Virus record (IMG/VR): IMGVR_UViG_2606217107_000010
Coordinates: 1 to 12,555 of that record
Reading direction: 5' to 3' (one strand)
Length of the DNA: 12,555 nucleotides
Source of the DNA: a virus
Taxonomy: Duplodnaviria > Heunggongvirae > Uroviricota > Caudoviricetes
Every line of letters starts with the position of its first letter. The stretch's first letter is position 1. The notes beneath the pieces are model-generated. The model ran no database searches and was not told where the DNA came from. It saw only the letters and a program-made list of their open reading frames with translations. The translations under genes were made by a program, and so were the position numbers. This document shows, one piece after another, positions 2,968-3,316 of the stretch.

Positions 2968-3090
2968 TCACGATTTCAGCGCAATGACCAGTTTTGCCAG
3001 CCCATACAGCATCGGAGACACAGCAATACCAACAGCCACCCACTTAATAGCAAAAGCCAGCGCTCTGCTGATGTCATCAGTCACTGTCAC
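2968..3090 (-). CDS. small hydrophobic ORF (40 aa, one predicted TM), or the 3' half of a frameshifted ~84-aa two-TM protein
   Basis: (GTG)TVTDDISRALAFAIKWVAVGIAVSPMLYGLAKLVIALKS. Either a coupled GTG start at 3090, or continuation of the previous ORF after a frameshift near the GGGGCTGCTGGGG run (3090..3110). Confidence 0.25.
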   Translation of the reverse strand: MTVTDDISRALAFAIKWVAVGIAVSPMLYGLAKLVIALKS

Positions 3091-3218
3091 CCCAGCAGCC
3101 CCGACGAAGACAACATCACCCAGGCGAGGGACAGAAAAAGAGCAACCAGCATTAGTGAAAATGAAATACCGACAATCACACACAGGACCTTTGCCGGCGT
3201 TATGAGTTTGTCTGACAT
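3087..3218 (-). CDS. small hydrophobic ORF (43 aa, one predicted TM)
   Basis: MSDKLITPAKVLCVIVGISFSLMLVALFLSLAWVMLSSSGLLG; ATG at 3218 with SD AAGGGG 7 nt upstream; stop TGA overlaps a GTG that opens the next hydrophobic ORF (GTGA). Confidence 0.35.
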   Translation of the reverse strand: MSDKLITPAKVLCVIVGISFSLMLVALFLSLAWVMLSSSGLLG

Positions 3219-3220
3219 AG

Positions 3221-3316
3221 CTACCCCTTAATTGCCACAATTAACTGGGATACTACCCATAAAAAAGGGATGCTCCAGACCAGCAAAAATTTCCAGTTTG
3301 GTAATTGACTAATCAT
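3221..3316 (-). CDS. small hydrophobic ORF (31 aa, one predicted TM)
   Basis: MISQLPNWKFLLVWSIPFLWVVSQLIVAIKG; ATG at 3316 with SD AGGGAG about 10 nt upstream; stop TAG at 3223..3221, 2 nt before the next start. Could be spurious. Confidence 0.25.
   Translation of the reverse strand: MISQLPNWKFLLVWSIPFLWVVSQLIVAIKG

Follow-up and report, generated by a model that had tools for sequence, protein, structure and literature searches.

Small hydrophobic ORFs between the endolysin and Rz genes

The IMG/VR virus record IMGVR_UViG_2606217107_000010 (positions 1 to 12,555; hereafter "the window," meaning the whole stretch of 12,555 nucleotides [nt] that was analyzed) covers the late region of an Escherichia coli lambdoid prophage, with the genes read on the minus strand. 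Within its lysis region, the genes for a signal anchor release (SAR)-type endolysin and the i-spanin Rz are separated by a minus-strand spacer of 642 nt, which harbors a terminator and four closely packed small hydrophobic open reading frames (ORFs), here termed A to D. A preliminary description of this DNA had reported ORFs A, B, and C, a TAG-ct-ATG junction, a GTGA overlap, and the terminator, all of which we found at the places given there on the minus strand. The same description had put the spacer at about 450 bp and counted only three ORFs; the fourth, D (2956..2870), had been missed. The elements of this region are, in the direction of transcription:

3511..4044, minus strand: SAR-type endolysin (R21/RrrQ-like lysozyme), an ORF of 177 amino acids (aa) (Pfam Phage_lysozyme, E=1.3e-23)
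3421..3510, minus strand: conserved noncoding stretch of ~90 nt after the endolysin stop codon, aligned in all spacer architectures
3388..3420, minus strand: intrinsic terminator hairpin, with 15 pairs plus a T-run in the terminator scan
3356..3387, minus strand: leader bearing a Shine-Dalgarno (SD) sequence, GGGAGG at 3366..3361
3221..3355, minus strand: ORF A, start codon TTG 3355, 44 aa (alternative start ATG 3316, 31 aa), stop codon TAG 3223..3221
3087..3218, minus strand: ORF B, from ATG 3218 to TGA 3089..3087, 43 aa, single transmembrane (TM) segment
2968..3090, minus strand: ORF C, from GTG 3090 (alternative GTG 3084) to TGA 2970..2968, 40 aa
2870..2956, minus strand: ORF D, 28 aa, hydrophobic (RefSeq WP_032140280.1; phrog_4493, E=3.8e-6)
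2401..2868, minus strand: Rz i-spanin (Pfam Phage_lysis, E=7.5e-50), with Rz1 embedded at about 2648..2463

The ORFs follow each other at very short distances. B starts 2 nt (ct) past the stop codon of A and is preceded by the SD-like sequence AAGGGG 5 nt upstream; the GTG 3090 start of C overlaps the TGA of B as GTGA; and D begins 11 nt after the stop codon of C, has no clear SD sequence, and stops 1 nt before the ATG of Rz. The GC content of the spacer is 45.6%, versus 55.1% in the endolysin gene (R) and 53.6% in Rz. The endolysin itself, which is named "lysozyme/rrrQ" in RefSeq, has the hydrophobic N terminus MNAKIRYGLSAAVLALIAAGA, with the basic residues K4 and R6 in its short cytoplasmic N-terminal part.

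All four ORFs correspond to RefSeq hypothetical proteins (WP_001043230, WP_001280935, WP_042004856, and WP_032140280) and belong to PHROG families, each annotated as "unknown function." Searches against Pfam, NCBIfam, and PADLOC gave no match for any of the four peptides. Existing annotations disagree on the start codons, with A called at 31, 44, or 70 aa and C at 40 to 90 aa, and the gene is often not called at all, e.g., in SPN3UB and H-19B. The maximum 18-residue Kyte-Doolittle means of the peptides were 1.9 to 2.8, and the helices predicted by AlphaFold2 (AF2) concurred.

Conservation of the individual ORFs

ORF A very probably starts at TTG 3355, behind GGGAGG (3366..3361), and thus encodes 44 aa. 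Its N-terminal motif IDFSKLIRELR is invariant across genera despite synonymous differences. The motif (I/V-D-F-S-K-L-I-R-E-L-R) was unchanged in homologues from E. coli, Citrobacter, Enterobacter, and Klebsiella, and the underlying DNA differed by synonymous exchanges such as CTG/CTA, ATT/ATA, and AGG/CGG. With the 70-aa call as query, A matched phrog_6632 (E=1.3e-12). Homologues of 44 to 45 aa were found in Escherichia, Salmonella, Providencia, Citrobacter, Enterobacter, and Klebsiella as well as in Actinobacillus phage pPE4, and a profile (hidden Markov model) search of 1.84 billion representatives yielded 39 clusters at 50% identity. Among 5426 complete E. coli genomes, A was present in 892. 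AF2 predicted two helices, an amphipathic one at residues 4 to 16 and a TM helix at residues 21 to 43, with a predicted local distance difference test score (pLDDT) of 78. The crude pairwise ratio of nonsynonymous to synonymous polymorphism (pN/pS) of A was 0.62 in frame.

ORF B matched phrog_4906 (E=4.5e-21), and its homologues in the protein database formed 103 clusters, all from E. coli and mostly of exactly 43 aa. The 43 codons were maintained without internal stop codons in 34 DNA alleles (173 copies) down to about 65% identity, with a 3' frameshift in two of the 34. Across these alleles, pN/pS was 0.61 in frame versus 0.87 and 1.03 in the shifted frames. B occurred in 1702 of the 5426 complete genomes at 4602 places, with up to 11 per genome, and its carriers include Shiga-toxin (Stx) phages such as VT2-Sakai. 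A single B-like gene was found outside this E. coli-type set, namely, after A in a cassette with an M15 endolysin (L220). The peptide was predicted by AF2 to form a single helix (residues 3 to 38, pLDDT 85). B is invariably preceded by another gene, and its end forms a GTGA stop/start junction. This GTGA is its usual junction with Rz in the arrangements C'-B-Rz and A-B-Rz; in the window, C is joined to it instead. A duplication of the N-terminal TM domain (TMD) of Rz as the origin of B was rejected since the similarity was not significant (p=0.04, uncorrected, 30 comparisons).

The B homologue of E. coli O157:H7 Sakai (MMGWLMISDKLITLVKSLCVLVGISFLVMLVAIFFSTAWRVLTLSGLVG) is identical to the "novel gene" XECs191, which was called translated in a ribosome profiling (RIBOseq) study of that strain (Huecker et al. 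2017, PMC5597208). For cultures in LB, transcriptome and translatome values of 30.0 and 12.6 reads per kilobase per million mapped reads (RPKM), a ribosome coverage value of 0.43, and a coverage of 0.55 were given, and the product was predicted to reside in the inner membrane, with one TM helix (PMC5597208). These data provide weak, though independent, evidence that the B homologue is translated.

ORF C matched phrog_1115 and phrog_3246 (E=6.4e-25 and 2.4e-20, respectively). Its start is uncertain, as the NCBI annotation pipeline PGAP takes CTG 3123. A 60-aa form (MEKYKRILLRLTMKNGLELKAP plus the core) was found in E. coli, E. marmotae, and Salmonella; the core, which at least five different N termini precede, is kept from E. 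coli to Salmonella, and the part retained in the window is exactly this core. The pN/pS of C was 0.36 and dropped to 0.15 once frameshifted variants were removed. D is paralogous to C (shuffle test of C versus D, z=4.8) and had a pN/pS of 0.39 versus 0.70 and 1.38 in the shifted frames. Full-length D (the D' type) has 50 aa, and the N-terminal regions of C' and D' are related, via 3-nt indels and synonymous exchanges. Judged from these sequences, C and D of the window are 5'-truncated copies that lost a roughly 22-residue N-terminal part by recombination and kept the conserved core. To this extent the idea of a decayed gene in the preliminary description was borne out, but the cause of the loss is recombination, not a frameshift.

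The core of C (KWVAVGIAVSPMLYGL) resembles TMD2 of P21-type pinholins (pairwise shuffle, z=3.7). Mimicry of this TMD was nevertheless rejected as an identity for C and kept as a lead only: the profile-profile probability was 4% (P=0.0095), and C accompanies other holin families. One database protein (P0223, from an ENA contig of 554 nt) joins the N-terminal 36 residues of a P21-type holin to 23 C-terminal residues of the C family at a common W-(A/V)-A-(I/V)-G stretch and is either a real recombinant or an assembly artifact. In a Salmonella locus (L213, 2805..3168), two C-type paralogues lie side by side after a tail-fiber/esterase gene.

Selection and coding strand

Crude pairwise in-frame pN/pS values of the ORFs ranged from 0.15 to 0.62, versus about 0.7 to 3.5 in shifted sense frames, and lay below these controls for all four ORFs. 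Within the ABCD arrangement, nine of 477 coding positions varied (five synonymous, four nonsynonymous, no stop codons), and 26 of 182 positions varied in the upstream noncoding part. The N-terminal regions showed indels in multiples of three together with synonymous changes. When the spacer was shuffled with preservation of dinucleotides, the observed count of hydrophobic ORFs was reached in 2.7% of trials, which is weak evidence taken alone. Support for gene-hood comes from conservation, not from composition.

The use of pN/pS ratios to prove the coding strand was rejected, as similar ratios were obtained for the antisense -1 frame, which has third codon positions in common with the sense frame and is open for B, C, and D. 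The strand call therefore rests on the module boundaries at sense starts and stops, the SD sequences, the operon direction, and the published RIBOseq data. On the plus strand, an antisense ORF of 73 aa spans B and C (2984..3205). No B, C, or D allele interrupts the antisense frame, whose pN/pS is as low as that of the sense frame, a pattern that shared third codon positions could cause without translation and that calls for caution in selection tests on small ORFs.

Taken together, A, B, and the core of C are likely to be real protein-coding genes. The set of small membrane peptides envisaged in the preliminary description has gained support, as regards gene-hood, from PHROG membership, in-frame pN/pS, predicted hydrophobic helices, and the RIBOseq homologue of B. 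Several observations weigh against the overall reading of the ORFs given below. A and B are under only moderate selection (pN/pS about 0.6), and the antisense -1 ratios are similar; one A allele has a premature stop codon (five copies), as does one A2 allele in its N-terminal part; and the XECs191 signal is low and was recorded without induction, in a strain that harbors several prophages of similar kind. Moreover, translation of C and D in the window is putative: both lack their native N termini and starts, D lacks an SD sequence, and the ABCD arrangement is nearly clonal.

Modular architecture of the spacer

To compare junctions, 80 loci collected via the endolysin and 120 collected via a degenerate B-core pattern were used; some contigs were fetched twice, and the counts are therefore not independent. 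The endolysin-Rz junction occurred in at least 10 architectures built from the same modules (R, endolysin; ant, antirepressor gene):

R-A-B-C-D (this window): spacer of 642 nt
R-C'-B: spacer of about 490 nt
R-A2: spacer of about 300 nt
R-ant-B (VT2-Sakai and other Stx phages): spacer of about 1000 nt
R-ant2-A-B: spacer of about 1200 nt
R-A-B: spacer of about 430 nt
R-D': spacer of about 340 nt
R-C'-D: spacer of about 440 nt
R-ant2-A-B-C-D: spacer of about 1413 nt
no spacer (K-12 Qin and DLP12): 0 nt

In every architecture with small ORFs, the last one stops a few nucleotides before the Rz start or overlaps it. The earlier statement that related phages usually have no spacer applies to K-12 Qin and DLP12, where rrrQ and rzpQ or rrrD and rzpD, respectively, overlap, but nearly all of the 80 close endolysin relatives carry one. 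A 671-nt query spanning the spacer recovered the whole array, at a coverage cutoff of 80% or more, in 587 of the 5426 complete E. coli genomes, in many of them at 100% identity; the strains NCCP15648 and PCN033 are examples with an identical array.

A terminator-led adaptor shared by mosaic small genes

The hairpin at 3420..3388 had been taken for the endolysin terminator. A terminator is indeed present, and RNAalifold supported 10 pairs, three of them with compensatory changes. However, the hairpin is not simply that of the endolysin gene, since the same hairpin and leader precede micro-genes in other contexts: at least 10 distinct genomic contexts have it 30 to 35 nt upstream of an ORF of the A, C', or D' type. 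It is instead the first element of a cassette adaptor common to a mosaic superfamily of micro-genes. In all adaptor-led cassettes, the hairpin is GC rich with a U-run, and an SD-bearing leader is present.

Scanning for the leader motif TTTCTN(1-2)ACCTTGN5GGCAAGG returned cassettes with A-type, C-type, D'-type, and hybrid peptides and, in addition, two further peptide types with an amphipathic N terminus, a TM helix, and a basic or aromatic end. Among the hybrids, the N terminus of C was combined with the end of D, and that of A with a C-like end. A, full-length C, and full-length D can be described as members of a mosaic superfamily that moves as a cassette of terminator, SD leader, and small ORF, and B as a separate E. 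coli family. The adaptor-led ORFs of three IMG/VR contigs (L261, L287, and L230) encode other peptides, e.g., VNINLGEWVVKALELFERSKTLRRMYY...VVRWW and VINFSGGDWIVEALKLLERSPVLRRMFY..., and the scan suggests that the superfamily is larger than sampled. The combination of terminator and leader provides a practical search handle for more such genes.

The noncoding stretch between the endolysin stop codon and the hairpin (3421..3510) is also kept in ant-containing Stx phages, whose downstream hairpin differs, and part of it recurs in a Salmonella locus (L208) behind an unrelated lysozyme. It gave no Rfam match and no promoter, and the spacer as a whole matched no known RNA family in Rfam. Together with the terminator, the stretch would make a 3' untranslated region RNA of about 120 nt. 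A consensus scan of the coding strand from 2300 to 4300 detected no sigma-70-like promoter, which is not proof of absence.

Recurrence in lysis cassettes and other late regions

A- or C-type genes occupy the position between endolysin and spanin in five otherwise unrelated settings:

cassette 1, E. coli: P21 holin and SAR lysozyme, followed by A-/C-type genes and Rz
cassette 2, Salmonella (SPN3UB-like): holin, SAR lysozyme, unannotated A, Rz
cassette 3, Salmonella: holin_2_3, 161-aa lysozyme, C, Rz
cassette 4, Enterobacter: holin_8/holin_3_7, GH19 endolysin, A, i/o-spanin
cassette 5, M15-peptidase cassette (L220): A, then a B-like gene

In the last of these (L220, 2501..2887), a third small TM ORF (MKRKHWTYRMPRTAAKWALVAILVPFLLTITCQLFC) comes after A and the B-like gene.

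Because the endolysin-spanin position recurs in five such cassettes, an accessory role in envelope disruption is suggested. Overall, we read the ORFs as horizontally exchanged membrane micro-genes of the late operon with an accessory, modulating part in envelope disruption, the most likely of the interpretations considered and about as likely as not to be correct. The endolysin-Rz spacer would then be a hot spot that has accumulated four independent, horizontally exchanged micro-genes, each probably encoding a single-pass inner-membrane peptide with its N terminus inside. With a terminator ahead of the ORFs and no promoter-like site behind it, the peptides would be made only from the Q-antiterminated late transcript, alongside holin, endolysin, and spanin; in the lambda paradigm, Q-modified polymerase reads through terminators. 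A and B would be initiated from their own SD sequences. Translational coupling would serve C through the GTGA overlap and D and Rz across gaps of 11 nt and 1 nt, respectively, so that the array might also bring ribosomes to Rz. Inserted late in the inner membrane, the peptides could affect its energization, SAR-endolysin release (helping or delaying it), or spanin action, after the fashion of antiholins or the Mu releasin. The existence, conservation, and modularity of the array, the membrane-type helices that it encodes, and its place in the lysis cassette of a Q-dependent late operon are established; late-only expression, coupling, and a part in lysis are deduced.

Besides the points given above on selection and translation, two findings stand against this interpretation. 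First, A-type genes also lie between baseplate spike and wedge genes (SEN34, Actinobacillus pPE4, and Klebsiella) and between tail genes in Citrobacter, and C-type genes follow tail-fiber genes in Salmonella, once as tandem paralogues. Since A-/C-type cassettes thus also sit in baseplate and tail regions, the family is not lysis specific and may serve a broader purpose, e.g., a late change to the membrane or exclusion. Second, the lysis cassettes of K-12 Qin and DLP12 lack any such genes, and the peptides are therefore dispensable. A lysis-specific role of the peptides appears doubtful.

A more far-reaching version, which we regard as rather unlikely, is that terminator hairpin, SD leader, and micro-ORF together form an unrecognized mobile micro-cassette whose arrays act as a hetero-oligomeric, tunable trigger or brake. 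In this form, a mosaic superfamily of tail-anchored peptides of 45 to 60 aa would spread among temperate phages of Enterobacterales and Pasteurellaceae, into their late operons. Insulated by the terminator upstream, the peptide gene would be read only by antiterminated or very active late transcription, and hetero-oligomers of A, B, C, and D would act on inner-membrane permeabilization, SAR-endolysin release, or spanin activation. If true, the cassettes would represent a fourth functional class beside holin, endolysin, and spanin, present in about one-third of E. coli genomes and in Shiga-toxin phages.

Comparison with known small lysis proteins

With holins and antiholins, the peptides share at least one predicted TMD and the location in the lysis cassette. 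S21-71, P1 LydB, and T4 RI are antiholins, i.e., small membrane regulators of lysis, which the peptides resemble in size, membrane anchoring, and cassette position. However, a charged C-terminal domain was not present (the tails comprise 2 to 7 residues, such as KG, SSSGLLG, KS, and RWW), and no holin match was obtained in Pfam or NCBIfam at E<=1. SAR-endolysin release in phage Mu requires the releasin gp25 (DUF2730), a small protein tethered to the membrane, whose family also accompanies cytoplasmic endolysins (PMC9239132). Here, too, the peptides are small, membrane anchored, and encoded in the lysis cassette, with a SAR-type endolysin gene directly upstream. In contrast to releasin and the antiholins, they are shorter (28 to 44 aa), show no sequence relationship, and belong to families that occur outside lysis cassettes as well; A is predicted to be arranged oppositely, with a cytoplasmic N terminus and a C-terminal anchor, and none of the peptides had a Pfam match that would place it in DUF2730. 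Nor are they members of the Rz/Rz1 spanins, as they end 2 to 7 residues past the TMD and lack a lipobox.

The genes as such are already known from databases as PHROG and RefSeq hypothetical proteins, and in the literature we found no described function for these peptides; the catalogue entry XECs191 was the only relevant record. What distinguishes them among small accessory membrane-protein genes of late operons is the combinatorial array at the endolysin-spanin junction together with the shared terminator-led adaptor.

Alternative explanations

The genes might be moron-type cargo whose job is not lysis but superinfection exclusion, a block of DNA injection, or another envelope change of advantage to the lysogen or the infected cell, with the junction merely serving as one permissive site in late operons. 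Small inner-membrane exclusion proteins from late-operon morons are known, such as HK97 gp15. We consider this explanation unlikely. It would agree with the presence of the same A-/C-type cassettes in baseplate and tail-fiber regions of unrelated phages and with the low RIBOseq and RNA signals of the B homologue in uninduced cultures. As in morons, the additional genes separate late genes that adjoin each other in relatives, deviate in base composition (the spacer has a lower GC content than its flanks), and are subject to high genetic flux; an antirepressor gene at the same junction in Stx phages also recalls the hypervariable "ant moron" carried in P22-like late operons (PMC2629481). Unlike in morons, however, the terminator lies before the genes, not after them, no promoter of their own was detected, and they are packed for coupling to the downstream late gene. 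Only 30 to 35 nt are available between terminator and ORFs, without a promoter-like site, and a terminator directly upstream argues against expression in the prophage state. PADLOC gave no match, and the endolysin-spanin position recurs in five unrelated cassettes.

Alternatively, the ORFs, or at least C and D of the window, could be nonfunctional by-products of recombination whose only use is to carry ribosomes to Rz. The adaptor and the ribosome-binding region of Rz would serve as recombination anchors, and the ORFs would hitchhike, with T-rich sequence staying open. For the ORFs in general this seems quite unlikely; the best candidates are C and D in their truncated state, which lack the N-terminal third of their full-length relatives, with D also devoid of an SD sequence. 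Chimeric and frameshifted variants are common (the variants P0219, P0220, and P0157 and the B alleles with 3' frameshifts), ABCD arrangements differ so little as to be almost clonal, shuffled sequences contain hydrophobic ORFs not very rarely (P=0.027), and the antisense frame is equally open. On the other hand, the part of C that is retained coincides exactly with the core, which is conserved between E. coli and Salmonella and has a pN/pS of 0.15, the N-terminal motif of A is invariant across genera despite synonymous substitutions, and B has kept its length in 34 alleles down to 65% identity. A mere coupling device needs no conserved amino acid sequence.

The presence among the peptides of one or more type I toxins checked by an antisense RNA, as in hokW-sokW of prophage Sp5, is very improbable. 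HokW is likewise a small hydrophobic inner-membrane peptide from the same kind of E. coli prophage, and it promotes phage release, a precedent for a small membrane toxin aiding the release of Stx phages (PMC8621323); the peptides studied here are small, hydrophobic, and helical as well. A promoter-like site on the opposite strand (3212..3241; 9/12 matches and a TG motif) points through A to the terminator, which is a hairpin on both strands. Such sites were not enriched, however (1 found versus 1.8 expected), and 3212..3241 is coding sequence of A and B and absent where A occurs without B. Unlike hokW, the genes lie inside an operon and show no hok-like sequence, toxin promoter, or long 5' untranslated region, and no antitoxin RNA was found with Rfam.

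Finally, hardly any credence is left for the proposal, made in the preliminary description, that B and C are the halves of one two-TM gene of ~84 aa broken by a frameshift near 3090..3110: apart from their adjacency and 4-nt overlap in the window, nothing supports it, and it is refuted by the occurrence of B and C in both orders (reversed in the common R-C'-B-Rz arrangement) and separately, in different genera and contexts (after ant or A, B is found with no C; in C'-D, Salmonella, and tail regions, C is found with no B), by the use of the same GTGA as the B-Rz junction, and by the lack of an intact fused B-C protein among the protein hits and clusters found.

Other features of the late region

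The late genes of the window follow the Q antiterminator in the order of the rows below:

11612..11235, minus strand: Q antiterminator, upstream of the late genes
after Q, minus strand: DNA methylase, three tRNAs with an STnc100-type small RNA (sRNA), and SASA esterase
continuing, minus strand: P21-type class II holin (PF04971), YdfR/DUF1327, SAR-type lysozyme, spacer, and Rz/Rz1
after Rz/Rz1, minus strand: TonB_C lipoprotein in the bor position, HNH endonuclease, and small terminase

Directly after Rz, where lambda and DLP12 have bor, 1736..2077 (minus strand) encodes a protein of 113 aa whose N terminus is lipoprotein-like and whose C-terminal domain is of the TonB type. Inside the lysis cassette, a 90-aa ORF on the plus strand (4150..4422) lies between the ydfR-like gene, whose 3' end it overlaps, and the endolysin gene; it is a RefSeq hypothetical protein without a Pfam match. 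Also on the plus strand, between Q and the late genes and thus opposite to their direction, there are genes for a DUF6731 protein of 313 aa and, after it, a hydrophobic protein of 147 aa that has several hydrophobic stretches (9823..11211). The pair gave no PADLOC match and looks like inserted two-gene cargo, possibly a defense system.

An STnc100-family sRNA (132 bits) and the tRNA genes Arg-tct, Arg-tcg, and Met-cat are located at 7581..7770 and 7847..8096 (minus strand), between the methylase and esterase genes of the late region. In a 2026 preprint, prophage "Pas" sRNAs were located around sialate-esterase and holin genes. A Pas identity was rejected for the endolysin-Rz spacer, as the Pas sRNAs of E. 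coli prophages lie between esterase and holin.

Implications

The textbook lambdoid lysis cassette consists of holin, endolysin, and spanin, to which many E. coli prophages add one to four conserved membrane-peptide genes. Should these peptides adjust the timing of lysis or the integrity of the membrane, phage burst and Shiga-toxin release could be affected. If they do not, the array would still be a compact and easily tested example of the cassette-like shuffling of small-protein genes.

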